A DNA stretch of 41,903 bases, taken from Balamuthia mandrillaris. Its lineage: Eukaryota. Positions 6,639 to 41,903 of this stretch are shown here, one piece after another. Under the pieces are notes generated by a model that did not search any database, had not been told where the DNA came from, and was given only the letters and a program-made list of their open reading frames with translations. Position 1 is the first letter of the stretch. Every line of letters begins with the position of its first letter. The DNA lies in NCBI GenBank assembly GCA_031835245.2, contig JAVKOQ020000061.1, positions 186,001 to 227,903 on the forward strand, given 5' to 3'. The translations under genes and the position numbers were made by a program.

Positions 6639-6650
6639 TTTGCATGAGCC

Positions 6651-9600
6651 ATGATGGAGCTAAAGGCGGCACGTGCAGCCTACACGCCCTTCTCCGTGGC
6701 AGAGCTGCCGTTTCGCAGCGTCACCCCGTTTCAGCCGTTCGGCCGCCGTCTAGCTGAAGAGGAGGAAGGAGAGGAGGCGCACGGCAGCGAGCTCGAGGCC
6801 TGTCGCAGCTGCTACCTTTTGGCCCCTTCCACCGCCGTTGCAGCAGCGGGGGCACAGCTGCACCAGGAGGGGCTGACTGAAAGCGAGGTCTATGCCTATT
6901 GTAGCGGTGGAGACGCGGCCACCGCCAGTACCAAAATAGTGTGGAGCAGCGGTGGTCGCGTCATAAACACTTGGGAGGTAGGCGGAGCTGCCGCCGCTAT
7001 CTCTTCTTTCTCCTCCCCTTCCTCTGCGCGCCAACATCAACCCTCACGCACCTTGAGCTGGGCTTCCTTTCCTTCTTCGTTGGCCAGCAGCGGCCTCCCT
7101 GATAGCTTCTCTTTTTCTTCTTCTTCGTCGTCGAGCTTCAACAGCATTGGCAGCACTTGGTGGAAGGAAGCAGTGGGTGGTGGGGCGTTGAGACAGCAGC
7201 GGCGACGACGCTACCTGTGCGTGTTGCAGGCGGTAGCTCGTACTTTGACGCTGTGTGAAACGAACGAAGGCATGGAGAGCACCAGCGGAAGCTCCGATAA
7301 AGTGCAACACATCCCTCTTCCTTTCCTTGCGAGCTCCTTGTGGCGGCTTCCGCTCGGGCTTCTCGTGCAGCGCGCCGTTTCTTCTTCGTCTTCTTTTTCC
7401 AATTCTGAATTTCCAACTGCAGAACAAATCACCGCAGAGGCAGTGCCTGGTCTGTTCTCGTTGTTGCATCCGTTGGAAGAATTGCGGCCGGTGCCAACCA
7501 CCACCTCTCCCTCTTCCTCTGATGTGGGCACCATCATCTACAGCAGCGAACGATGGCCGCTCATTGTCAGCCATCATCAGCAGCATCACCAGAACCACCA
7601 ATCGCCTACAGAGTGCGAGATGGAAGGACACAGCCTGTGGATTCTGTTGCCTGCCCAGCAGTCTCATCAGCCTACTTACACAACCGCTATCAACAGCAAA
7701 AAAGCGGAGCGAGATTTCGGCCTTTCCAACAGTAGCGCTGACCCTGTGTTGGAGCCTCAGCTAGCCCTTCATCGCCTCTTTGTGGCAGGGCAAGGAGAAG
7801 GAGGTAAGGAACCAAAAGGAAAAGCCTCCTCTGTATTTATCATGCCCGATGATGGACAAAGCGATGAAAACCACATGAAGGGTCTTCTCTGCCTTCTTAT
7901 CCCAACACTTTCACATCATTTACGAGGTGGCCACCAATCCAACAAAGCAGAGGAAGGGGCAAGCAGCATTTTGGAAGTTTATAGCTTCAGCATTACACTA
8001 AGCCCATCCTCCAGTCTTCCCTCCTCTAAATATTCATCAGTTCCGTCAGCAGTGGCAGTACCTCAGTGCCTCGTCAAGAAAGTCCACAGCCAGGCGGCGC
8101 TTGCGGCTATGCCCATAGAACGAAGAGCCTCCAACAGTTCCAGCGACCTAGTGATACTCCACACCAATGGAAGCATTGGAGTTTATCGTCAGCTTAAGCT
8201 CTTGTTCCACTGCTCTTTCTGCGTGCCATCACCATTGTCGATGCCACCTGCTCCAGTAGTTGGGCTTTGCGACGCAATTGGCTCCCGCCTCAACTTGTTG
8301 CTGGGCGACCGCAACCAGACGCGATTACGCGTGACGGTGCCGGAGGTAGCCTCAAGTCCGCTGGTTCTACGTTGCCTTGCCTTCCTCTGTTCAGCGATGC
8401 ACCAGGAAGATGCTTTCACACTGCTCCGCCTTTATTTGTGCCACAACCAACAACATAACAATGTTGCATCATCCCTTCCTGCAGAGATAACAGACGGAGA
8501 GGAGGAAGTAGAGTGGCGCTCCCTGTGTCACGTCCTTCATTTCATCTTTGAACGACAAGCCACTGAGCCATATCACTCGCCAGCACCACAACAACTATCT
8601 TCTTCTATTGGCTCAGACCATAGTGACGATGATGACGGCGATGACGATTGGCAGTATCTACTTGGTAGCAACGTTCATCAAAGACACTCTACTTCTTTTT
8701 CAGCTCTTGACAAACACTGCACAATACCCAATGTAACTCGCAGTCACTCTTCTTCATCTTCTCCGTCCACGTCAAGTTACTCGCTTCTGGAGGAAGAATG
8801 GAACAGCAAGGTGGTGTTATTCTCCACTAGCTGTTCCACCATTCTGTTTGCCTTACATTCCATCTACGAGGAATCCAAATTGAACATTCTACATTCCTCT
8901 TATGTACAACGGCTCGGTACTTTGCTGATGGAGTTGGCGCAACGTCTTGCATGGCTCAATTATTTGGAGCACTATCGTCGCGACTTGGGGCTCAATGTTG
9001 TGGATGGAGAAGGAGCAGCTTGCACAAGTTGTTCCTTAGCCTCGTGCGAGGAAGAACCCGCTAGCATTTATTCATGGCTCCATCGTCGCTTGCGAGGGGA
9101 GATAGGATTAAAACCATTTACCTTTGCGATTCAGCCCTACGAGCAAGGAGAAGCGACAGCCGTCCCCTTGGTTGATGCTTCGCGGGTTGGTGACACACAA
9201 CTAACTCGCAAAGTCTGTTTGTTCTATGATATCCTCTGTGGTGGAGATGGCCACCACTATGCCAATGCTCACCCTAACAACCGTGGAAAAGGTGAAACGA
9301 AAGAGGAAAAAGAGAAACGGAAAGAAGAAAGCACAGCACCGGCGAGTAAGCCTGTTGTTTCCTACAACAAACCGTCGGAACGGTGGCAGCGAGTAGTGCT
9401 AAGCATGGCCCACGAGGGCTTCACCCTGGAGCAGCTCAACAATCTACCATTTGGCGTGGCGGTTCCCCTGCGGGATGCTATTCAGCAGTGTCGTGCTGGC
9501 AACATACCCACAGGTTGGCCTGTTGCTGCGTATCATCTGTTGGGAAGGAACGATCTGGCACCTGGCTTTAATGCTTCTCTGGTTGAACAACTGCCATCCC

Positions 9601-12600
9601 CGCACGACGCACAAGGGAGCGATGACACAATACTTGAAAACACAGGAATTTCCTTCTCTACAGGAAGAAACAGGCCCGCCACTACCGCTACAGGCAGCGC
9701 TGCTCCAACGACAAGTGGTGAGCAAGACATGATGGGCAAGAGGAATGAGTGGGATGGCCTGGGTGCCATCCTTGATAATGAAGCATGCAGACTGCGATTT
9801 GGACGAGATCAGCGGTTGCGAGACGTACACAAGATGCTGGCTTCGTCATACCCTCGCCGCATCCACCTTCAGGCCAATCAAGCAGCTGGAGCAATGGGTA
9901 TGGCTGAGCATGAGATCGCAGCCGCACAACAAAAGCAATTGCTTCGAATGGCACATCGTACGCTGGCACTGGCAGTGGGGCGAGGCATGTTCACCCTGTC
10001 CAGCACTTCCTCTCACCTGCTGGTGGAGCCCCTTCCCATACCTCTCATCGTGTTGGATGGTAAGGCGGGAGAAAGAGGCAAAACCTTGACTGTCACACTG
10101 GAAGCTGGTTCGGTACCGCCAGAGGTCCTTCGCTGGCCTGAGTTTCACAATGGGGTAGCCACCGCTCTTCGCATTGCTCCCTCTTATCAAGTAGCAGACA
10201 TGGATGACGATGAGTTGGCTAGCAGCGCCGGTGCTGGTTTTTGGGATCAACGCCAAGTGACTAGCACCTGGATAGTCTACAACAAGCAACTGCAGGCAGC
10301 AGCGGGAGGAGGATCGGATAACAACATGAGCAATGGTCATGCGGGACTGCTGATGGGTCTAGGCTTGCAAGGCCACTTATCGTCTTTATCTCAGACCAAG
10401 GTCTTTGACTATCTCAGCAAAGGCCATGAGCTAACCAGTGTGGGTATACTGCTGGGTATGGCTGCCTCCAAAATCGGAACGATGGAGGCCTCGCTGGCAA
10501 AACTCCTCAGTATCCATGTGCCAGCGCTGCATCCGCCCAGTTCCAGTGACCTAGAGGTGCCGCCTAGCGTTCAAACAGCATCATTGCTCGCGCTCGGCCT
10601 CCTCTACCAAGGCACTCTCCACCGCCATATGTGTGAGATTCTTCTGCAAGAAATAGGGCGCAGCCCTTTGGCAAAGCCCCATCCCGATCATGGTGGAAGC
10701 AGCAGTGGTGCTGAGCGAGAAGGTTTGGCCTTGGCTGCGGGATTGGCTTTGGGGCTCGTGGGGCTGGCCCAAGGTGGCAATGGTGCTACTATGAAACCTG
10801 CTGGTCTCAGCGACATGTGCATCGAGGACACTCTGTTCTATTACATGGAAGGAGGGAGACAAGGCGGTAACACCAAGCGGCCTCTTTCTACTGCATCATC
10901 ACTCGATGGAGGAGGTGTCTCCGCTCTGCATGATTGGCTGGCTCCTGATGCGGATGATACAGCAGCGACTGAGGACAGCGTTACGATGATGATAACGGGC
11001 AATGGGGCTTCTGATAGATCTCTTCATGGCAACAGTAATAACAGCAAAAATAGCCTTGTCCTCTTGAGCAGTAGACGTCCTGTAGATGTGGACGCAACTG
11101 CAGCAGGCGCCATTCTGGCCCTAGCCCTCTTGTTCTTGAAAACAGAGCACCGAGTGGTAGCTCAGCGGCTTGCCCCGCCCACCACACCTTACTTGCTAGA
11201 TGGCATTCGACCCGATCTTCTCTTGCTGCGTGTGCTCGCTCGCAACCTTGTTCTGTGGCACTCCATACAACCCAATAAAGGTTGGATGGACTCTCAAATG
11301 CCACAGGTTGTCCTCCGTTTTGCGGCCAAGGAAGATGCAAAGAGGACTCGAGGCCCCATCTTTGTGGAGGAACAGGATGACGATGAAGACGTGACCTCAA
11401 GCAGCAACTATGCGTATGCGGACACGCTGCGTCAGGCGCATATTAACATATTAGCAGGGGCATGCCTATCGTTGGGCCTTCGCTTTGCCGGTTCTTCCGA
11501 TGGAGCAGCCTACGCTCTCTTGCTGGAACAGGTTGAATATATGCAGAAGCGCCTGCGGGTGGCTCCCGAGCAGGACTATCCTATGGTGGAAACCTGCCTC
11601 AACATGGCCACCCTCTCACTGAGTTTGGTAATGGCAGGAACGGGCCATCTGCCCACTCTTCGCCTGTTAAGATCGCAGCACCGCCGTGTACGCCCTCGTC
11701 ATCCTCATAATAGATCTCAACGACAGGAAGAGAACTTGACGGATCTGTTTTCACGCAACGGCAGCAGGGAGGCGGTATCATACGGCACTCATATGGCTAC
11801 AAATATGGCATTGGGTTTGCTATTTCTGGGAGGGGGTAGATACAGCCTTGGCACTCAAAACCATCAGATAGCAGCGCTGGTATGCGCTCTCTACCCTCGC
11901 TTCCCTCTGGATTGCCAAGACAATAGATACCATCTTCAAGCCTTCAGGCACCTCTACGTCCTTGCCTGCGAGGAACGCTGCGTGCAAGCTGTGGATGTAG
12001 AGACAAGGCAGCAATGCTATGTCCCAATCAGAGTGGACCTTATGACCAGTTCTGCTCGCAAAGGAAGCAGCCTAGACCTCACTGCACCTTGCCTCCTTCC
12101 TGAGTTCCGTTTCATTCAGCGCATGTCCATTGCCAGCCCTCGTTATTGGAGCTACAACATCGTTTTGGCCCCCTCACCAGGTGATGACGACACTAGACAT
12201 TCTTCTGCTCAGGCCAAGACGTTGCTTCGCCATCGTATCATCTTTGTCAAGCGCAAAACAGGTTTTCTGTCATACTCTCAAGACCCAGCTGGCCTTCGTA
12301 GCATTCTATGCCGTCCCTTCCCCCAGTATCAGCACCACCTTCAAAATCCTGCCTGCCATTTATTCCAACAAAAACAACGCCCATCTGCGATGAGTGCCGC
12401 GTGGAAGCAACAAAATCGCCTTCTTTTCATCAAGTCGTTCTCACAGGACCCCAACATACTTGCCTTTGCCAACCATTTTGCTCTGCCACAATCATGTGCA
12501 AACCCCACTGGTGCTTCAACCTCTCCATTCACCCAACTGCACAACGAAGAAGCTGCCAACTTCCTCGCCTCCTTCTGTACTGCAGCACTTTATGAATGCC

Positions 12601-13283
12601 TAACCCAAGAAAAACCTGAAGTGCTGCAGACTTATCTTCATCTATATCGTATTATCCAACAGCTTCGTAACTATTCTGCCATCTGTTCAGCTTCCTCTCC
12701 CTCTGGTCACCTTGCAGAAAGGGAAGTGGCAGCACTCACTCAATCGCTTTTGAATGTAAAAATCATATTGGCCTACTATTCTTCTTCTGCATCATCGTCT
12801 TCTTTCGCTTCTGATACCTACAATGATGATTTGCCTGCCACTGCTTCTTCTCCTGCACCCTTGCTACAAGCAATAATGTTGGCAGAGCTACAAGATAGCG
12901 TTAATAGCTTCTTTGATGAACTTCATTTTTGTTTGCCAACTTCACATGCAGCCGCCCTTCATCCATTATCACCATCATCACAGCTTCCACAGGCTCACAA
13001 CCCCACTCCCTTACAACAATACATTCTCTCTTTCCTGATGAAGGACGAAGCCACACCGATATCCTCCTCCACAACCACACAACGTTTGTTTGGATGCTTC
13101 CTACAGTACTATGACATTCCCTATCCTCCCTCTCTTATAAGCAATTTTGCGATACCTTCATCTTCCTCCTCAGCACGGAGAGGAGTCTCAATGTTGCGGT
13201 TAGCTCGTCTTCTTCCCCATAGTCCTCCGCATGTATTGGCCACTATCCTCCTTGCTCTTCGGCCAAAAACACCTTTGCAATAA
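6651..13283 (+). CDS. ANAPC1: Anaphase-promoting complex subunit 1, single 2210-codon ORF
   Basis: LFSLLHPLEELRP, WPEFHNGVATALRI, HAGLLMGLGLQGHL, PC-repeat region, YGTHMATNMALGLLFLGGG, DNRYHLQAFRHLYVLA are characteristic APC1 motifs. Confidence 0.96.
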   Translation: MMELKAARAAYTPFSVAELPFRSVTPFQPFGRRLAEEEEGEEAHGSELEACRSCYLLAPSTAVAAAGAQLHQEGLTESEVYAYCSGGDAATASTKIVWSSGGRVINTWEVGGAAAAISSFSSPSSARQHQPSRTLSWASFPSSLASSGLPDSFSFSSSSSSSFNSIGSTWWKEAVGGGALRQQRRRRYLCVLQAVARTLTLCETNEGMESTSGSSDKVQHIPLPFLASSLWRLPLGLLVQRAVSSSSSFSNSEFPTAEQITAEAVPGLFSLLHPLEELRPVPTTTSPSSSDVGTIIYSSERWPLIVSHHQQHHQNHQSPTECEMEGHSLWILLPAQQSHQPTYTTAINSKKAERDFGLSNSSADPVLEPQLALHRLFVAGQGEGGKEPKGKASSVFIMPDDGQSDENHMKGLLCLLIPTLSHHLRGGHQSNKAEEGASSILEVYSFSITLSPSSSLPSSKYSSVPSAVAVPQCLVKKVHSQAALAAMPIERRASNSSSDLVILHTNGSIGVYRQLKLLFHCSFCVPSPLSMPPAPVVGLCDAIGSRLNLLLGDRNQTRLRVTVPEVASSPLVLRCLAFLCSAMHQEDAFTLLRLYLCHNQQHNNVASSLPAEITDGEEEVEWRSLCHVLHFIFERQATEPYHSPAPQQLSSSIGSDHSDDDDGDDDWQYLLGSNVHQRHSTSFSALDKHCTIPNVTRSHSSSSSPSTSSYSLLEEEWNSKVVLFSTSCSTILFALHSIYEESKLNILHSSYVQRLGTLLMELAQRLAWLNYLEHYRRDLGLNVVDGEGAACTSCSLASCEEEPASIYSWLHRRLRGEIGLKPFTFAIQPYEQGEATAVPLVDASRVGDTQLTRKVCLFYDILCGGDGHHYANAHPNNRGKGETKEEKEKRKEESTAPASKPVVSYNKPSERWQRVVLSMAHEGFTLEQLNNLPFGVAVPLRDAIQQCRAGNIPTGWPVAAYHLLGRNDLAPGFNASLVEQLPSPHDAQGSDDTILENTGISFSTGRNRPATTATGSAAPTTSGEQDMMGKRNEWDGLGAILDNEACRLRFGRDQRLRDVHKMLASSYPRRIHLQANQAAGAMGMAEHEIAAAQQKQLLRMAHRTLALAVGRGMFTLSSTSSHLLVEPLPIPLIVLDGKAGERGKTLTVTLEAGSVPPEVLRWPEFHNGVATALRIAPSYQVADMDDDELASSAGAGFWDQRQVTSTWIVYNKQLQAAAGGGSDNNMSNGHAGLLMGLGLQGHLSSLSQTKVFDYLSKGHELTSVGILLGMAASKIGTMEASLAKLLSIHVPALHPPSSSDLEVPPSVQTASLLALGLLYQGTLHRHMCEILLQEIGRSPLAKPHPDHGGSSSGAEREGLALAAGLALGLVGLAQGGNGATMKPAGLSDMCIEDTLFYYMEGGRQGGNTKRPLSTASSLDGGGVSALHDWLAPDADDTAATEDSVTMMITGNGASDRSLHGNSNNSKNSLVLLSSRRPVDVDATAAGAILALALLFLKTEHRVVAQRLAPPTTPYLLDGIRPDLLLLRVLARNLVLWHSIQPNKGWMDSQMPQVVLRFAAKEDAKRTRGPIFVEEQDDDEDVTSSSNYAYADTLRQAHINILAGACLSLGLRFAGSSDGAAYALLLEQVEYMQKRLRVAPEQDYPMVETCLNMATLSLSLVMAGTGHLPTLRLLRSQHRRVRPRHPHNRSQRQEENLTDLFSRNGSREAVSYGTHMATNMALGLLFLGGGRYSLGTQNHQIAALVCALYPRFPLDCQDNRYHLQAFRHLYVLACEERCVQAVDVETRQQCYVPIRVDLMTSSARKGSSLDLTAPCLLPEFRFIQRMSIASPRYWSYNIVLAPSPGDDDTRHSSAQAKTLLRHRIIFVKRKTGFLSYSQDPAGLRSILCRPFPQYQHHLQNPACHLFQQKQRPSAMSAAWKQQNRLLFIKSFSQDPNILAFANHFALPQSCANPTGASTSPFTQLHNEEAANFLASFCTAALYECLTQEKPEVLQTYLHLYRIIQQLRNYSAICSASSPSGHLAEREVAALTQSLLNVKIILAYYSSSASSSSFASDTYNDDLPATASSPAPLLQAIMLAELQDSVNSFFDELHFCLPTSHAAALHPLSPSSQLPQAHNPTPLQQYILSFLMKDEATPISSSTTTQRLFGCFLQYYDIPYPPSLISNFAIPSSSSSARRGVSMLRLARLLPHSPPHVLATILLALRPKTPLQ

Positions 13284-32204: not shown

Positions 32205-32820
32205 CGTTGATTCTGCCCAAATTAGAAAAGTACACAGTGAGCCAGTCTTTGGTTTGCACAAAGGTGCCAAACCAGGCCATGATTGTGATGAAGAGGTAAA
32301 GTGGTTCCTGCTTTCCATAAGTTCCATAAAGGCATAAAACTTTTTGTTTGAGGAAATGATATTAAGCTTGAGTCATGATCAAAGCGTCAGTGATGCTTGC
32401 TTTTTGCAAATAATGCATTAAGATTTCTCTCATATGCATTTTTCCAAGGTAAGCTAAGGCCTTGTTCTCTTTAGGAAAAGATTCCTTGGTTTTTGGTTTT
32501 GAATCTTTTTATATATAATTATTATTGCTTTGCTAGCAGCAAACCAGATTAGGCAAATGTAATCAGTGTGCCCAACTTTTTGTTCACTTTAAACAATGCA
32601 ATAGTGTGGAGGAGGCATTGCAAGGTTTATAAAAGGAAAGAAGTGATTATTTGCACCTTGTTTGTTTACATAAAGAAAAGTGATCAAAACGGTAACAAAG
32701 ATATTATGATAATCAATCACCAATAAACTTTTTGATGGTCCAGCACTTTGGAGAAGTGTGGTGATGAGAAAAAGGAATGAAAGCAGAGGCTTTGGCTTTG
32801 GCACAACGCTTGCAATGGCC
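32205..32820. pseudogene. Degenerate, internally rearranged relic of the same transposase family as 34968-37194
   Basis: Nucleotide similarity seen by eye. About 32210-32352 matches 36730-36880 in the same orientation, about 32355-32681 matches 36664-36330 inverted (including the intron), and about 32682-32817 matches 36131-36330 in the same orientation. Stops and indels throughout. Confidence 0.85.
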
Positions 32821-32966
32821 AATGCAAGCAAAGTTGTAAACAAGTCTGGAGATTATGGGCAGCAAGAGCAAGTTGGAAGCATGGAAGTTCTTCTGCATTT
32901 TATCAATCTTTGGAAGTAATGTAAACGTAAGGAAATGATAAGAGAGGAAAAGGAAAGGAAAGGATT

Positions 32967-33108
32967 GCTAGATGATATAAAGTTAGTCTGAAAGCTCATT
33001 CAACACCTTTCACTTGTGAATTAAAAAACAAGTGGATGAGGTGTTGTTATAAAGTTCACAAGTGAAAGGTATTGAATGAGCTTTCAGACTAACTTTGTAT
33101 CATCTAGC
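32967..33108. mobile_element. 142-bp foldback / MITE-like element with 54-bp inverted arms
   Basis: 32967-33020 is the reverse complement of 33055-33108 with 2 mismatches; 34-bp spacer. Confidence 0.75.
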
Positions 33109-33834
33109 TAAGCTCAGTTGTTGTCCAACCAAACATCTTCCATTTGTCAAGAAGCTATGCCAAAACTATTCTCTTGTTCCTCTTTCTCCTTCAACTGCAT
33201 ACCTATCAAGGCCTTGAGCTATGGCTTCCTGCTGCCTATTGATAAAGGAACCTGGAGCAGGACTGCCTTTGGTACTTTTTGCACTTTCTTCTACAATAAG
33301 ATTATTGATCTCCTAGTTGAGAGATTCAATCAGGTCCCTGAATCACTGAGAGTGAGAGTATGCCTACCTCAGAGAGCTTACAACCCTTGTGAGAAACACT
33401 GTAGTTACAATCTAACAGCAGTGCCACTTGACTGTTGGTTTGCTGCTTAATGTCATCTACACTTCCTCCAAAAACTGATTTAGGGTGTCCCCTTTGACAA
33501 AACACTCAGGTTTCAAAGCAGGCTTCCATGGATGATTATAGTTTAGAGTCCCCAGGACAAACAAACCTTTGATATATATGAGCACTATTAATAGCCAATA
33601 CTGTTAACTCGGACCAGTAACACAAGAATGCAAGAAAGTGAACAAGACCAAGGAATAGGCTTTAATGGAAAGAAAGTGTCATGACAGTGTGTGTGTGTGT
33701 ATGTGTGTTTGTTACTTGTTCCTGTTCCAAGAGAAAAAAAAAAGAGAGAAAGAGAAAAGAGTTCTTAATCCACTTCATTATGATCATCAAAGACAGGAGG
33801 AGGCTCAAACGGATGTTCCACATGAGTAGAAGAG

Positions 33835-34260
33835 GGGCTAGCTCTATTGAGAAGAGAAGAAGGCACTCAGTCAGGAATAACAGAACCAGTGACGTCTTGA
33901 AGAACATAAGCACCAGCATGATTCCTTTTCTTGACAACAAAGGAATTGTGATGCATGACCTTGTTGCACCTAACACAAACTCGGCAGAGTGCTGAAGGCA
34001 ATTGTGAAAAGAGGCTATCTTGTTGTTGTAATCACTTGTAGCTTCCTGAATAGCATAGGCCAGACTAGGGAATGGAGCTGGTCATTTTGGGAACAGTGCT
34101 CAGAACAAGAAACAAAAAACTTGTGTTGTTTGGTTGTATGAATGTTGACAACTGTAGGTTGACCAATTGCCAATGCAATGCATACTGTCATGCCTGAAGA
34201 CAAAAAAAACAAAGGTGTGGCCGAGGTGGATGTGAGGAACACAACAAAGTTGTCTATATG
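33835..34260 (-). pseudogene. Probable Ty3/gypsy integrase C-terminal relic
   Basis: Frame-shifted pieces TSATPLFFLSSG, LHSLVWPML and SFVVKKRNHAGAYVLQDVTGSVIPD*VPSSLL resemble the late integrase and GPY/F region of gypsy elements. Catalytic core not seen. Confidence 0.5.
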
Positions 34261-34728
34261 CTGTTGTAGCCCTTTCATGGCATTTCTAGTGTATTCTGTG
34301 GTTTTGTCTAACTTGTGCTGTTCTTCTTCTTTGGCAATGTGTTCAGTCTCAGGAAAGCTGGGGATGTCGAGCTCAAGTTGACAGGATTGTTGGAGCATGC
34401 AAAAGTACTCCTGTTGTGCCTTACAAAGCTGTTCACAGAGGGTATTGAGAGCGGCTGTGGCTTCCATGGTGTGGGTAAAAGAGGATTTAATCACTTATGT
34501 AAGCCAAAAAAAATGTTGGTTGAATCCAACCTCAAGAATAAAAGAGTCAGCAATGAGACAAGAAGTATATTCAAGAGAATAGAGGAAGGACAATGAGAGT
34601 GAATCTCCGATGTTGCTTCAAAGTACACTGAGAGAAAGGGGAAAAGGGAGAAAGGAAGGATGGAGAATATAACACAATACAAACAAAAAGGAGAATCTCC
34701 TTTTGCTATTCACTTGGATTATATGGCA

Positions 34729-34960
34729 AAAAAAAATATTTTTCAGGTCTTAAAAAAAATATTTTTCTTAAAAATTAATTTTCAATCAAAAAAATAATAT
34801 TTTTCCTTTAACAAAAATAATAAAAAAAAATGTTTTTTAATTTCTAAAAATATTTTTTATGGTTTGAGAACATTTTTTAAGTTCTAAAAATTATTTTTTA
34901 TAAAGCATTATTAAAAGACATTTAATATAAAAAATCTACTATTAAACATTAAACAAAATA
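34729..34960. repeat. Extremely AT-rich tract downstream of the transposase with an imperfect ~28-bp direct duplication
   Basis: ttttttaa(t/g)ttctaaaaa...tttttt at about 34833 and 34873, among alternating A and T runs. Confidence 0.7.
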
Positions 34961-34967
34961 CAAAGAT

Positions 34968-37194
34968 TTATGAATGCTGTTTTTCGAATCTATCTAATTC
35001 TGCATAAATTTGAGCTTTGTAAGCAAAAGATAATTTGTGATCTGAAGTTAATGCTAAAGGACCCCAAATAAAAGATGCTTGATGTATGTTTTGTGTTTCC
35101 TTTTGTAAAAAATAACATTGACCTCATTTTGTATACCATAATACAGTAGCTTTACAAGGTGTTGTGGAATGAACAAATGCAAGCCAAAAGTCCTCTGAAG
35201 AACCATCTTTTGGACAAATAGCATAAATGTGATTGGCTAAAATATGGAAAGGTATGCAAGTAGCACAACCAGATGTTGTGACTTGAGATGAAAATTCGAT
35301 TGAAGAGGAGGAAGCAGCTGAAGTCAAAGAAGTGGATGCAGAGAATGAAGGAGTATGTTGTCGATTTAAAGCAGTCATAGGTTGAAACAAAGTAAAAAAA
35401 GGATTATCCAAAGGGGATGAAGGGTGTTGTAAATTATAAATCAATGCTTGTAAGCGAAGTTTGGAAGAAAGCAAAATAGTAGAAAAAGTAGATTGAGTAC
35501 CTCGAATGCATTCTTCTTCTACACAAGATTTGGGTATCAAATGAGGAATATGAGTGGAATATAAAGATAGATTTGGAAATCCTTTTATCAATGAAATGGG
35601 TTTGCTCCAAGGAGCATGAATGTTGGATTTCACTTGTAAAATGGGCCATATTGGAGGGCAGGTCATTGTAGGAGTGGGATAAATAAATTTGAAAAATAGA
35701 GGTTGGGAATGACCTTCAAGATTTACCATGAAAGGATGCAACCAACCTTTGAAATCCCAGACCCATTCCAAAGGATGTAATTCTGGACGAGTTTCATCCG
35801 TTAAATAAGAAGAGTTAATGAATGTAAAGAATTGCTCCAAGCTTTCAATATCAAATTTGAGTAATGCTTTACGAAAGGTAGAAAACATTTGATCCACATC
35901 TTCATGAGTATGTCCAGGTGGCAAAAAGCAAAGTTTGATCTTGGAAAACATCTTGAGATGCACCAACCAACATAAAAAGGCCAATAAATACTTGTTTTTG
36001 TTTTCTTTATAGCAGTTGTCAGCTTGAAGGTAGAGGGTTTGGTTGGGATGGGCTCAAATGGGTTGTTGTAATGTTTGCATGAGAAAGTAAAATAAATGAC
36101 TAATTACTAAATTGGCATCACGTGACCACTGATCAAAATGATAACGCAGATAACAATGATGATGCTCATGATCTATCAGTCCAAAACAAGAGATACCAAT
36201 AAACTTTTTGATGGTCCAGCCTTTTGGGGGAGTATGATGATGGGGAAGAGGAATGGCCTCTGTATAATCCATAATGATGGAATTGTATTTGAAAGGAGAG
36301 GCTTTGGCTTTAGCACGATGCTTGTAATACTTCTCTTTGTGTAAAAAAACAAAGTGCAAATGATCACTTCGTTCCTTTTGTAAGCCTTGCAATGCCTCCA
36401 CACTCTTGCATTGTTTAAAACGAACTAGAAGCTGAGCACATTGATCACATTTTCCTAATCTGGTTTGCTAATACAGAAAGCAATAACAATTATTCATCAA
36501 CAGGTTGTTAGAATAAAAACAATGAATCATTCCTTTCTTTTGACAAACTCTCTCAACAAACAAAGCTTACCTTGGAAAAATGAACATAAGAGAAATCTTC
36601 ATGCAACATTTGCAAAAAGCGTGCATAACTGATGCTTTGATCATGTCCCAGGCTTAATACCATTTCTTGATACAAGGCTTTTCGATTCAATATCATTGGA
36701 ATCTGAATGACTTCAGAGTTTGGCAAGGATTCTCCCATATTGGCAAAGTACACTGTGAGCCAGGCTTTGGTTTGCGAATAGGTGGTGGAGTGCCAAACCA
36801 GGCCACGATTGTGATGAAGAGGTAAAGTGGCTCCCGTTTTCCACAAGTCCATGCAGGCATAAAACTTCTTATTGGAAAGGGCCAGCCATAATTGGATTGC
36901 TTTGTAACAAACCAGATGACCAGCCAAAAGCAATCGTTGCTTGGGGGGCCTGACAGCTCTGGTCTCTTGATAAGGGCCATAAGAAAGAAACAAGCAATCC
37001 ACAAGAAATTTGGTTCTGGCTTGTTCTGAGTCCAGTGTCCAATAATAGGTGCGCATCTCTTGAAAATCCTCTGATGAAATGCTGGAAAGACAGTATTGTT
37101 GACAGCAGTAACTGTGCTTTGAAGTCCGGATATGTTGCTCTGAAAAAAACCGACGTGCAGTGCTTTTCAGTTTGGATGGTGGTTGGAAGGCCAT
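34968..37194 (-). pseudogene. Sola1-like DDD transposase with one intron (36468-36570) and two in-frame TGA codons
   Basis: The ORFs 36553-37194, 36054-36401 and 35124-35984 join into one frame: CCQQYCL...FSK|QTRLGKCDQC...SIIMDYTE...QPI*AHPNQTLYLQADNCYKENKNKY...CFLPPGHTHEDVDQMFS...LWYTK*GQCYF...KQHS-TAA (34970-34968). Putative triad: D(IMD), D(ADN), D(EDVD). The intron position is mirrored in the relic at 32.4-32.5 kb. The Sola1 label is from motif memory. Confidence 0.85.
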
Positions 37195-37487: not shown

Positions 37488-38483
37488 GGATAGCCAATGC
37501 CTTTCATACAATAGTAGAGAAAGCCGAAGAGGGCTGATCTGCACTGCATGGCATAGCCAATGCCAGCCATACAAAAGAAAAGAGAGCAGAAAAGGGCTGA
37601 TCTGCACCGTATGGCGCAGCCCATGCCTGCCTATCAAAAGAAAAAATGGCGGAAAAAGGCTGATCTGCGCCATACGGTGCAGCCCATGCCCCTCATACAA
37701 AAGAAAAGAGAGCGGGAAAGGGCTGATCTGCACTATATGGCGCAGCCAATGCCTGCAAAACAAAAGAAAAAATTGAGTAAAAGGGCTAATCTGCACCGTA
37801 TAGTGCAGCCCATGCCTGCCATACAAAAGAAAAAATTGTGAAAAAAGGCTGATCTGCGCCATATGGCGCAGCCCATTCCTGCCATACAAAAGAAAAGAGA
37901 GCGGAAAAGGGCTGATCTGCGCCATACGGCGCAGCCCATGCCTGTCATACAAAAGAAAAGAGAGCAGAAAAGGGCTGATTTGCACTGTACGGTGCAGCCC
38001 ATGCCAGCCATACAAAAGAAAAGAGAGCAGAAAAGGGCTGATCTGCGCTGTACGGTGCAGCCCATGCCAGCCATACAAAAGAAAAGAGAGCAGAAAAGGG
38101 CTGATCTGCGCTGTATGGCGCAGCCCATTCCTGCCATACAAAAGAAAAGAGAGCAGAAAAAGGCTGATCTGCGCCATACGGCGCAGCCCATTCCTGCCAT
38201 ACAAAAGAAAAGAGAGCAGAAAAGGGCTGATCTGTGCTGTACAGCGCAGTCCATGCCAGCCATACAAAAGAAAAGAGAGCAGAAGAGGGCTGATCTGCGC
38301 TGCACGGCGTAGCCAATGCCAGCCATACAAAAGAAAAGAGAGCAGGAAAGGGCTGATCTGCGCCGTACAGCGCAGCCCATGCCTGTCATACAAAAGGGCA
38401 GATCTGCACCATACAGCCGATGCCAGCCATACAAAAGAAAAGAGAGTGGGAAAGGGCTGATCTGCGCTGTACAGTGCAGCCAA
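37488..38483. repeat. Tandem array of a 63-bp unit (16 cores), each with an 18-bp palindromic core and an A-rich spacer
   Basis: Cores start at 37539, 37602, 37665, 37728, 37791, 37854, 37917, 37980, 38043, 38106, 38169, 38232, 38295 and 38358 (exact 63-bp period), then 38404 and 38462. Unit approx. GGGCTGAT-CTGCGCCGTACGGCGCAG-CCCATGCCAGCCATACAAAAGAAAAGAGAGCAGAAAA. Confidence 0.97.
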
Positions 38484-38965: not shown

Positions 38966-41903
38966 ATGTCGGACAACAAGAGATTGACAGTGAAAGAACT
39001 GCGGCAAAGGATCGACGACCTCAGTGGACAATGGACCACCAAGGACTCCAAATCTGTCTTATCACACAAATTGCAAATGCTACAAACTCCTACGTCGAAT
39101 CCTTCTTCCAACCAACCTTCGGACCTCTCGGAAACAGATGAAGGCTCATCTTCCTCCCCATCCAACAGGTAAAACAACTTGCTCTCCATTTTGGTTTTTC
39201 TGGTGAGTGATTGAGGTTTTTTATGATAGCACTCCAACAAGAAATGATTGGATTTTGCGCGAGAGCGACTTGGAAGCTGTGCATCTATTTTGTGCACCGG
39301 ATGGCGCAGACGAGGAAACCAAAGAGGTGGCAGAACTTTGTAAAACTCGGCTTCAGGAGGGGACTCGTTTGGTTCCGTTGAAAGCTATCACTATGAAAGG
39401 TTTGTGCTTTTATTTTTGTGTTATAGTCAACAGCTGAACGGCCACTATTCGCCTTGCTTCTTTCTTCCTCAAGGGAGAAGGGCCAGTCCAGCTCCATCCT
39501 ACTTTTGCCCTTTCTCTTCTCTCATCCAAATTATTATTTGAAGGGATGGTGTTGACTGCGCCGTACAGCGCAGATCAGCCCTTCAGCTCATTTGCTGCGC
39601 CGGATGGCACAGTTCAGCCCTTCAAACCTCCAGTACTTTAGAAGGGAAATCATTGGCTGCACCATATGATGCAGCTCAGCTCTTCAAATCCTCTGGTATT
39701 TTTGAAGGAAGGGTGTTGGCTGCACCATATGGCGCAGATCTGCCCTTCAGATCAACACTTTCCTTTTATAGTTCGGGTGATGATTGCGCCGTATGGCGCA
39801 GATCACAACTGCTGCCTTAATTTCTTGTTTGGCTGGCAAGAAAAGGTTATAGGCTGCGCCGTACGGCACAGCTCATGCCTTTGGCCTTTTTCTCTCTTGT
39901 TGACTAGTTGAAGGGCATTGGCTGCGCCATACGGTGCAGCGAATACCCTCCACAGTTTTTCATGCCTTCTTTTAACTTTGTACTGTCATTAACTTCGTTT
40001 GTTTTATCAGGTTGGCATCGACCTCTAAAACCAGAGGGGTTGAACAAGCTGCTGGCCACATTCAACTCAGGCGGCATTTTGTCTTTTGATGAACGCTCTT
40101 CTTTATTATTGATGGAACTGCCTTCAGCTCTGTGGGTGCATCCAGAAAGCAATCAACAAGAATATGTATGTCTTGGAGGTAACCATCGATGTGCAGCAGC
40201 CCACGTATTGTACTGTGAAAACTCCCCAAAGCTGAAGGAGTTAACTTGGAGGGCCAAAGTGCTGCCATTTGATGGCAAACAACTTCCAAGTGTGGCTGTC
40301 TTGGACAAGGTACAATTCCTTGGAGTTTTCTGTTGCTTTTTCTGTTTTTTAACAAGGTGACTTACTCATATTTCTTGGAAGTTGTCTGCCTGGGACAACC
40401 TGGTGTTGTCCGAAGGAGTCAATCAAGAGACAGAATGGGATATGGTCCGTTTTGTGTACAATCATCTCACGAAAACACCAGAGGAGCTGTTCCATTATCT
40501 GGTAGGCCTTCTTTGGTTGCAGGCAAGCTTTCTAAAATGATTGCTCATTTTTTCTCTTTTGTGTTGGGTGGGTTTTGTATTTTAGAATTCACAAACTGCC
40601 TCCCAAGATGCCCATAATGCTCTCACCTTTGATCGTGTTTGACGTTTGAAAACAGTGGCAAACAAAATGCAGAAATTCCCAGAGTCTTGGAGTTATATTC
40701 AGGAGAAGGACAAAGAGAAGGGGGGCTGGGTGTTTACTCCTTACCACTTCAGAGAGAAAATGCCAAGCTCCTTATCAGATGAAACCTTGTTGGCAGCCTT
40801 GAAAGAGATATGGGCAAGGCACCTCGAGGATCCCAAGGAAGAATGTTCTGTAACCAACTTCAAAAGATTGGTAAGCTGCATTGCAATCTTTTCTTTCTCT
40901 ATCTTGTCACTACTACTTTTCCTCATGAAACGTGCATACATGCAGATGTGGAAACACATTGGTCGAAAAGCTATGCATGAAGAACTGGAATTGTATCATA
41001 CTGAAAAAGAGATTCCTTTAGCCCACTTGGTATTGATTTCTATAGCATTGAAGTTTAGTTAACATTTCCTTTTGCTATCTTTCATTCATTTATTCATTCC
41101 TTGCTGCTAGCAACACATACCCTCCGATGAACCAGCTTCTCCTCCATTCCACTCAAACACCACTACACCTCAACCCTCTCCACCTCCTTCACCAAAACCA
41201 TCTCATGATATTGAAAGGAAAAAAAAAAGAAAAAGCAAAAAACAACAACCAAAGACCTCTTCCAAACACCAGGCCAAAAAAGCAAAAAACCATCATCGTG
41301 GCAGACCCAAACTCAACACTCCTCCTCAACCCTCCAAACAATTGGCCCACCAACTCAACAAATGGGGAAAGGACGTGCTTGCTTCTCATTCCCCTCCTAC
41401 CAAGTTCAAAGTGATCATTTATGATAATTTACCAACACATGCTCCCTTGATGCTTGATTCCTTGGGAGTACACTGCCAAAGTAAGTCTTTTTTGGGTTAT
41501 TTTTTCCAAAGAACTCAGATTGCTGTCTGTCTAATTTTCTCTCATTCTTCCCAGATCATCATGTGGAAAGGGTTTTGTTGATAACTACCCGTTATAATCA
41601 CTTGCACTTGGCCATGAATCAAATCAATGCCTATAAACAAAAGCAACGTCAGCTTTTGATTAACTTGAAGCTAGAAACAGTTCTTGTTTTTGGGTACAAA
41701 CCTCACCATTCCAACCATAACAACAAACCACAATGGTGTGAGAATGGCATCTTTGTGGCAGTGTGGAACAAAGGCCAAACACAGTTGCAGGATGATTCTA
41801 GTTCGATTACTTCTTCTCTGTTGGCCTTGGAGACATGGCAACCAACTTCAGTGGTGATTCCAATCAAGGGACCTCAAGCTCAGGAAGGACAAGTGGCTGA
41901 TCA
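38966..41903 (+). pseudogene. Spliced gene for a SAP/HeH-like + ParB/Srx-like + AT-hook protein; one in-frame TGA; 3' end beyond the window
   Basis: Phase-consistent GT-AG model: 38966-39168, 39230-39399, 40011-40309, 40382-40501, 40586-40870, 40946-41029, 41111-41480, 41555->41903. Motifs: LTVKELRQRIDDLSGQWTTKDSKSVLSHKL; RLVPLKAITMKGWHRPLKPEGLNKLLATFNSGGIL; YVCLGGNHRCAAA; LSAWDNLVLSEGVNQETEWDMVRFV; HRGRPK. TGA at 40640-40642. Confidence 0.75.
39540..39945. repeat. Cluster of seven copies of the same 18-bp palindrome with diverged spacers, inside intron 2 (39400-40010) of the ParB-like gene
   Basis: Cores start at 39556, 39595, 39657, 39720, 39784, 39854 and 39922. The ATCAGCCC-type flank lies 3' of the core, so these are inverted relative to the main array. 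Confidence 0.9.

Follow-up and report, generated by a model that had tools for sequence, protein, structure and literature searches.

Transposons of eukaryotes were first described as carrying ParB-type accessory genes in 2025, in algae and by prediction only. The closest layout is found in the 21.5-kb Ectocarpus element Sola1-1_Ec32, in which a gene opposite the transposase encodes a 1104-residue protein with a ParB-like and an N4C/N6A methylase domain, proposed in the available part of the account to attach to the element that carries its gene and to modify it (PMC12477816). In red algae, Bostrychia among them, the Plavaka/EnSpm gene PAG3 is described, in the accessible text, as combining ParB with a 2-oxoglutarate oxygenase beside tandem inverted-repeat arrays, with a weak ParB call (HHpred E-value 0.29; bioRxiv 2025.02.11.637652). 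A gene of comparable layout is present in Balamuthia mandrillaris, at the end of a 41,903-nucleotide stretch of contig JAVKOQ020000061.1 (positions 186,001 to 227,903 of the contig; hereafter the window, numbered 1-41903). It encodes a ParB-like domain followed by a methyltransferase fold, lies head-to-head with a transposase-like gene and has palindrome arrays between the two genes and in an intron. No published account of such a gene in Balamuthia or in Amoebozoa was found; the layout itself is already in print for brown and red algae, and what is new is the amoebozoan host and the apparently dead methylase.

Like Sola1-1_Ec32, as far as the available text describes it, the Balamuthia locus comprises a DNA transposon of presumed DDE/DDD type with a second gene on the opposite strand, whose product unites ParB-like and methyltransferase parts. 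It differs in the amoebozoan host, in the size of the predicted protein (about 870 residues against 1104) and in the non-canonical methylase motifs. Palindrome arrays are unmentioned in the available part of the Ectocarpus account and present in Balamuthia, and the likeness drawn here is one of layout. With the red-algal PAG3 and PAG2, as characterized in the accessible text, the locus shares a ParB-like part joined to a DNA-modifying fold, adjacent arrays, and copies that are mostly degenerate and weakly transcribed; there, unlike in Balamuthia, the PF01555 methylase has a gene of its own, which also carries a SET domain, and the transposase is of the EnSpm type. By analogy, the Balamuthia gene may work like these algal accessory genes: the layout features are present, the ParB part being probable. 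An amoebozoan case that brings together a ParB-like domain, a methylase fold and palindrome arrays within a single compact unit widens the host range of such genes.

Prokaryotic and phage fusions of ParB with N6/N4 methyltransferases offer a second comparison. The order of a ParB-like domain followed by PF01555, the arginine of the GxxR motif and the mobile-element setting are common to them, on the available description (bioRxiv 2025.10.10.680097), and to the Balamuthia protein. Found in Balamuthia only are the introns, the long linker with a basic stretch and an AT-hook core, the SAP-like start and the acidic tail, and both DPPY and motif I are lost there. By analogy the protein also resembles ParB/Spo0J, KorB and VirB, the last described as a ParB-type anti-silencer in the accessible text (PMC10770331), as an orphan ParB-type protein that would load at a palindrome and act on transcription; unlike them it has no ParA, no GERR box and no identified helix-turn-helix. 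DUF3723 proteins, which fungal Starships carry as cargo (bioRxiv 2021.12.13.472469; PMC10175614; both in their available parts), are likewise carried by eukaryotic mobile elements and were neighbors of our protein in a language-model feature search, but the Balamuthia protein has no Pfam DUF3723 match and Starships use tyrosine recombinases. In the accessible part of the Starship paper DUF3723 is not termed ParB-like (bioRxiv 2021.12.13.472469). Among eukaryotic adenine methylases, fusions with ParB-type helix-turn-helix domains are on record in the available text, as are DIRS1 elements whose methylase domains are dead (PMC4738411).

The gene is very probably the second gene of a decayed multi-copy DNA transposon. 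Its partner, a DUF7869 transposase-like gene on the minus strand (35121..37194; 655 codons with one intron at 36468-36570; Pfam DUF7869, E-value 8e-43), lies head-to-head with it at a distance of 1.8 kb and carries an in-frame TGA at codon 346. By its motifs, the DUF7869 protein would be a DDD/E transposase of the Sola type. Proteins of the ParB-like family are encoded on 11 contigs of different length, a number that alleles may inflate. Contig depths in DNA run X1, which are indicative only and do not equal copy number, were 33.3 and 31 for the transposase, 31.4, 36.7, and 47.2 for exons 3-8 of the ParB-like gene and 13.6-21.3 for exon 2 with intron 2, compared with 4.4-7.9 on six host-gene contigs; this pattern suggests that the two genes were amplified jointly. 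The GC and CpG contents drop from about 32 kb onward, and the observed-to-expected CpG ratio, 0.66 in host DNA, is 0.30 in the transposase gene and 0.37 in the ParB-like coding sequence, with a range of 0.15-0.37 over the coding and flanking DNA of the element. The initial annotation, which had taken the gene for a eukaryotic ParB-like gene with chromatin-tethering additions, is upheld in part; it is recast on the strength of the divergent transposase, the arrays, the many copies and the CpG decay; the transposon context, palindrome arrays, multi-copy state, decay and C-terminal methyltransferase fold had all been absent from it.

The gene occupies 38966..41903 of the plus strand, with eight exons in the window, and continues past the window end. 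All seven introns are of the GT-AG type (61, 611, 72, 84, 75, 81, and 74 nucleotides), and the joined frame contains one stop in 625 codons, compared with 20-27 stops in each of the other five frames. Exon 1 (38966..39168) begins with the start codon at 38966-38968 and encodes a SAP-like first helix (LTVKELR, recognized by a 9-residue match) followed by a Ser/Pro-rich linker. The ParB-like domain begins at 39366 within exon 2 (39230..39399), has its core in exon 3 (40011..40309), with the GxxR motif GGNHR at 40175-40189, and ends in exon 4 (40382..40501) with two predicted helices, where the model has a predicted local distance difference test score (pLDDT) of 51-59. Exon 5 (40586..40870) is helical with no fold assigned and contains an in-frame TGA at 40640, and exon 6 (40946..41029) is shortened by a deletion at 41030 relative to other copies, which keep 33 further codons. 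Exon 7 (41111..41480) encodes a Pro-rich linker, a basic stretch (41216-41242), the AT-hook core RGRPK (41297-41311) and the start of the methyltransferase fold, with the motif IV region at 41414-41434. Exon 8 (41555..41903, open at its end) covers the middle of this fold, the region of the S-adenosylmethionine (SAM)-binding motif lying just past the window. Summed with the remainder from database protein P0014, the full protein would comprise about 870 residues.

Database protein P0012, labelled Balamuthia mandrillaris, agrees by inspection with exons 1-4 and has identical first three junctions, and 263 residues of P0002, encoded on a different contig, show 97.7% identity; these database models are gene predictions and not independent proof of splicing. 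The exon chain proposed initially stands, as do the positions of GGNHR, WDNL (40391-40402), ETEWDMVRFV (40427-40456), the basic stretch and RGRPK, but position 40501, where the initial annotation had closed the gene, is not its end: coding continues through four further exons from 40586 to beyond 41903. RNA was sampled from three runs, at 3-5% of each. Spliced reads were present for host genes; in the ParB-like gene no splice joint appeared at the 3-read listing threshold, and one read pair of run X16 has bin depths that, by arithmetic, require a skip of about 80 nucleotides at the position of intron 4. Introns 3, 4, and 5 (72, 84, and 75 nucleotides; within 40310-40945) are each in phase 0 with a length divisible by three, and database models run into intron 4, cutting the gene in two. 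No internal duplication was found between the N- and C-terminal halves of the protein.

The middle domain probably adopts a ParB fold. A profile built from 70 bacterial ParB-family domains aligned, unprompted, to both the RLVPL...GGIL and the GGNHR segments named in the initial annotation, over 64 columns with a weak E-value of 0.047; the score was reached by 6 of 200 shuffled sequences and the length by none, and in an hmmsearch with the same profile 8 of 5000 shuffles scored as high, as did 4 of the 682 control windows with open frames that were taken from unrelated loci. The third proposed segment, WDNL..., was left unaligned, and sequence searches against Pfam, NCBIfam, PHROGs, and the proteins of the PDB yielded no match to ParB, Srx, DUF3723, or SAP. 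In the Atlas comparison of language-model features, with residues 100-262 of P0002 as query, unnamed clusters of cnidarian and mollusc proteins scored 0.95 and 0.94, a DUF3723 cluster 0.94 (31% of its members carry PF12520) and a ParB_N cluster 0.92 (32% of its members); 117-167 of 256 features were shared, where a true family match typically shares 170, and a score of 0.9 was attained by 4-10 out of 100 shuffled proteins. DUF3723 may itself be related to ParB. The estimate for the ParB fold leans also on its common pairing with N6/N4 methylases, and several of the reference reading frames match both families. As a separate observation, the top Atlas look-alikes are commonest in Cnidaria and Mollusca, a hint of ParB-like transposon proteins in animals.

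The GxxR signature of Box II is present as GGNHR in the window and in five of the six database copies spanning the site, P0010 having Q; the commonest Box II form in the references is AGERR (25 of 70), in place of which GNHR is found here. According to the available text on the prokaryotic fusions, Box II GxxR carries the nucleotide-binding arginine, and use of nucleoside triphosphates is not predictable from sequence (bioRxiv 2025.10.10.680097). A canonical partitioning ParB of a ParABS system was rejected: the Box II is not of the GERR type, and no parA neighbor occurs in the window (DNA to 41903), where the neighbors are the transposase and host housekeeping genes. The catalytic cysteine of sulfiredoxins sits within a GCHR motif; an Asn replaces it here, and sulfiredoxin was rejected as well.

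At the N terminus, the SAP match covers the first helix only (9 residues, reached by 1 of 5000 shuffles), the full two-helix motif being about 35 residues long, and Pfam SAP gave no match. The basic stretch and the AT-hook core of the initial annotation are present as motifs. Rho_N was rejected as the N-terminal domain, its score being at chance level (391 of 5000 shuffles).

The C-terminal half is well supported as a beta-class N6/N4 methyltransferase fold. All seven of the Atlas structure matches listed fall in N6_N4_Mtase (PF01555)/MT-A70 clusters, with template modeling (TM) scores of 0.56-0.62 for a model of mean pLDDT 0.47; PHROG 18293, a methyltransferase, matches with an E-value of 1.4e-4, and with a profile of 23 bacterial PF01555 domains none of 5000 shuffles and none of 428 control windows scored as high. 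The motif I region was aligned by hhalign (E-value 7.8e-4) and motif IV was placed by inspection, motif IV preceding motif I. The catalytic (D/S)PP(Y/F) is absent, with YDNLP in its place in all eight copies spanning the motif. The SAM-binding DPFxGxG is likewise absent and replaced by AFN(P/S)T in all six copies that cover it (P0003, P0006, P0013, P0014, P0017, and P0018). Among the 23 reference methylases, (D/S)PPY/F occurs, by a pattern of our own, in 18 and a motif I of the DPFxGxGT/S type in 12. Since the replacements are identical in all copies, they appear to be a family trait older than the decay, and the methylase is apparently catalytically dead. This apparent loss bears on the question of whether such proteins write marks or merely bind.

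A 63-bp tandem array of 14.4 copies (37492..38479), each unit containing an 18-bp palindrome, lies between the start codons of the two genes. Seven further degenerate units, with flanks inverted relative to this array, occupy the 611-nucleotide intron 2 (39400..40010; cores at 39556-39939), giving 21 units in total, so that palindrome arrays flank exons 1 and 2 on both sides and occur within the promoter region common to the two genes. No unit occurs between 3344 and 37602; at the same stringency, the host DNA (32 kb) contains one chance match, and a further match lies in exon 2. CpG covers 8 of the 18 palindrome positions, and 45 of the 51 differences from the perfect palindrome across the 21 units are C-to-T or G-to-A changes at CpG, an excess of transitions which indicates that the array has likely been methylated and has decayed. 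The 18-bp palindrome is thus a candidate binding site, and the hypothesis of self-binding is directly testable. The palindrome also occurs in at least 80 prokaryotic loci; with a single site per 1-kb locus and no sign of related arrays, these occurrences were treated as chance. Long open frames on both strands of the 63-bp array are a by-product of its period, and a coding role for the array was rejected.

Both a premature stop and a deletion disrupt the copy in the window. The TGA at 40640 is absent from a DNA contig of run X1, from the RNA read and from models P0001 and P0004. At 41030, the DNA contigs of run X1 have extra letters and seven models (P0001, P0006, P0007, P0008, P0013, P0014, and P0017) have 33 additional residues, which indicates that the deletion is carried by the window copy; the apparent splice donor at 41030 is probably its scar. 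This copy is a relic, and nothing found here links it to the disease biology of the amoeba.

The best overall explanation, to which we give a probability of about 0.6, is that the locus carries the accessory gene of a decayed transposon whose protein binds the element's own palindromes; for the further proposal that the protein is a self-binding regulator of its element, judged from sequence features, the chances are about even. A ParB-type domain with DNA-gripping additions would load at the palindromes and carry the methyltransferase-fold domain onto the element. The protein may dimerize on the 18-bp palindromes that flank exons 1 and 2 and lie in the promoter region common to both genes, with nucleotide bound in the GxxR pocket promoting loading or spreading, as in ParB and VirB, and the AT-hook core and basic stretch could assist either step. 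Lacking DPPY and DPFxGxG, the methyltransferase fold would more likely bind or shield DNA than methylate it. The net effect would be control of transcription at the bidirectional region, probably by easing CpG methylation imposed by the host. Silent repeats carry CpG methylation in Acanthamoeba, a related amoeba, according to the available part of that study (PMC12344493).

Several observations weigh against this explanation. The ParB statistics are weak and no structure model of usable confidence was obtained: two AlphaFold models had pLDDT values of 35 and 42, and Foldseek searches with both gave no match at an E-value of 0.001. No helix-turn-helix family matched exon 5, which follows the ParB-like domain. 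At the same E-value no relatives were found outside Balamuthia, hence there is no conservation profile; phmmer over 1.84 billion sequences returned three matches, all near-identical copies, while metagenome and viral contigs yielded no relative, phages one match at an E-value of 10 and algae no match. Sola transposons have terminal inverted repeats and a 4-bp target duplication; element ends, terminal inverted repeats and a target duplication were not found within the window, and the right end lies outside it. CpG decay marks the element, and RNA coverage is almost nil, with two reads over the ParB-like gene, both in run X16 and so in one of the three runs; if the protein counters silencing, it has not prevailed here. 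The host RasGEF gene had near-zero RNA depth in the same runs, and the silence of the element is not proven, since a host gene is nearly unread too. In Acanthamoeba, moreover, the accessible text reports methylation enrichment for some inserts only, not for DNA transposons as a class (PMC12344493).

The alternative that survives best, though unlikely, is that the protein, by binding the palindrome arrays, pairs or positions the element ends for the transposase, with no epigenetic role and with the methylase fold as a relic. The second protein of CACTA elements is such an end-binding transposition helper. The inverted orientation of the arrays, the lack of canonical methylase motifs in all copies spanning them and the joint amplification of the two genes are consistent with such a role, but the arrays observed occupy central parts of the element, one separating the two genes and the other inside an intron, and none is near the candidate left end. 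Many Sola-type elements measure 2-9 kb, according to the part of the survey available (PMC10741241), too short, as we infer, to hold such a second gene.

Somewhat less likely again is an active self-methylase, which, steered by the ParB-like domain, would use a non-canonical active site to mark the element with N4-methylcytosine or N6-methyladenine, as proposed for the algal proteins. The fold and motif order are kept and an Asp persists at motif IV (YDNLP); in the accessible texts, methylation is predicted for the Ectocarpus protein (PMC12477816), and in phages ParB-like partners switch on enzymes that modify DNA (bioRxiv 2025.08.14.668559). Against this stands the uniformity of YDNLP and AFN(P/S)T in the copies, unlike the references, with replacements that predate the decay.

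That the middle domain is unrelated to ParB, its motif order having arisen by chance in a fast-evolving transposon protein with a methylase fold only, is improbable. The lack of a library match, the equal scores of a few unrelated windows and the Atlas values, below a typical family match and within reach of shuffled proteins, speak for it. The hypothesis was, however, set before the profile was applied, and both named Atlas families agree, if our assumption about DUF3723 holds. Fusion of ParB with N6/N4 methylases is common, according to the available description (bioRxiv 2025.10.10.680097). That this is a bacterial or viral gene domesticated for host chromatin is hardly credible: its introns are short and of host type (61-84 nucleotides, apart from intron 2; host introns 60-150) and one read pair shows that some stop-free copy is transcribed, but there are many near-identical copies, with most database models broken or mis-joined, and the window copy combines a stop and a deletion with a linked transposase and CpG decay.

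Returning to the palindrome-binding accessory protein, a bolder extension, which we consider doubtful, is that algal, amoebal, and probably animal transposons carry a true nucleotide-gated clamp of the parS/ParB kind, the methylase of Balamuthia serving as a dead reader or shield against CpG methylation. If true, a nucleotide-switch anti-silencer would operate inside a eukaryotic nucleus, its clamp spreading from the palindromes of the element and guarding the shared promoter.

The first 31.5 kb of the window contain host genes for importin-5-like, COMM domain, APC1, ZIP, WD40, PAN2, Fcf1, RasGEF, and NMD3 proteins. Among these intron-rich genes, APC1 (6648-13283) forms a single open frame of 2211 codons with no apparent introns. 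Beyond the transposase stop, an AT-rich stretch with a 20-bp repeat (34700..35100) is a candidate subterminal region of the element. A rearranged second transposase fragment at 32209-32816 is 77-87% identical to 36195-36876, with pieces in both orientations, and a 65-bp inverted repeat, 91% complementary with a 12-nucleotide loop, lies at 32967-33108. Fragments of another repeat occupy 32823-33650, where diverged copies contribute a pile of RNA reads (with many loose ends and bin depths of up to 16); parts of it resemble P0003 and also P0004, which its source names an RNase H domain protein, and the repeat is likely a retroelement also located in or beside other copies of the ParB-like gene family. 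Finally, the summed depth of run X1 DNA contigs reaches 390 at 34150-34811, which marks a high-copy repeat beside the candidate left end of the element, perhaps its terminal region held in common with non-autonomous copies.

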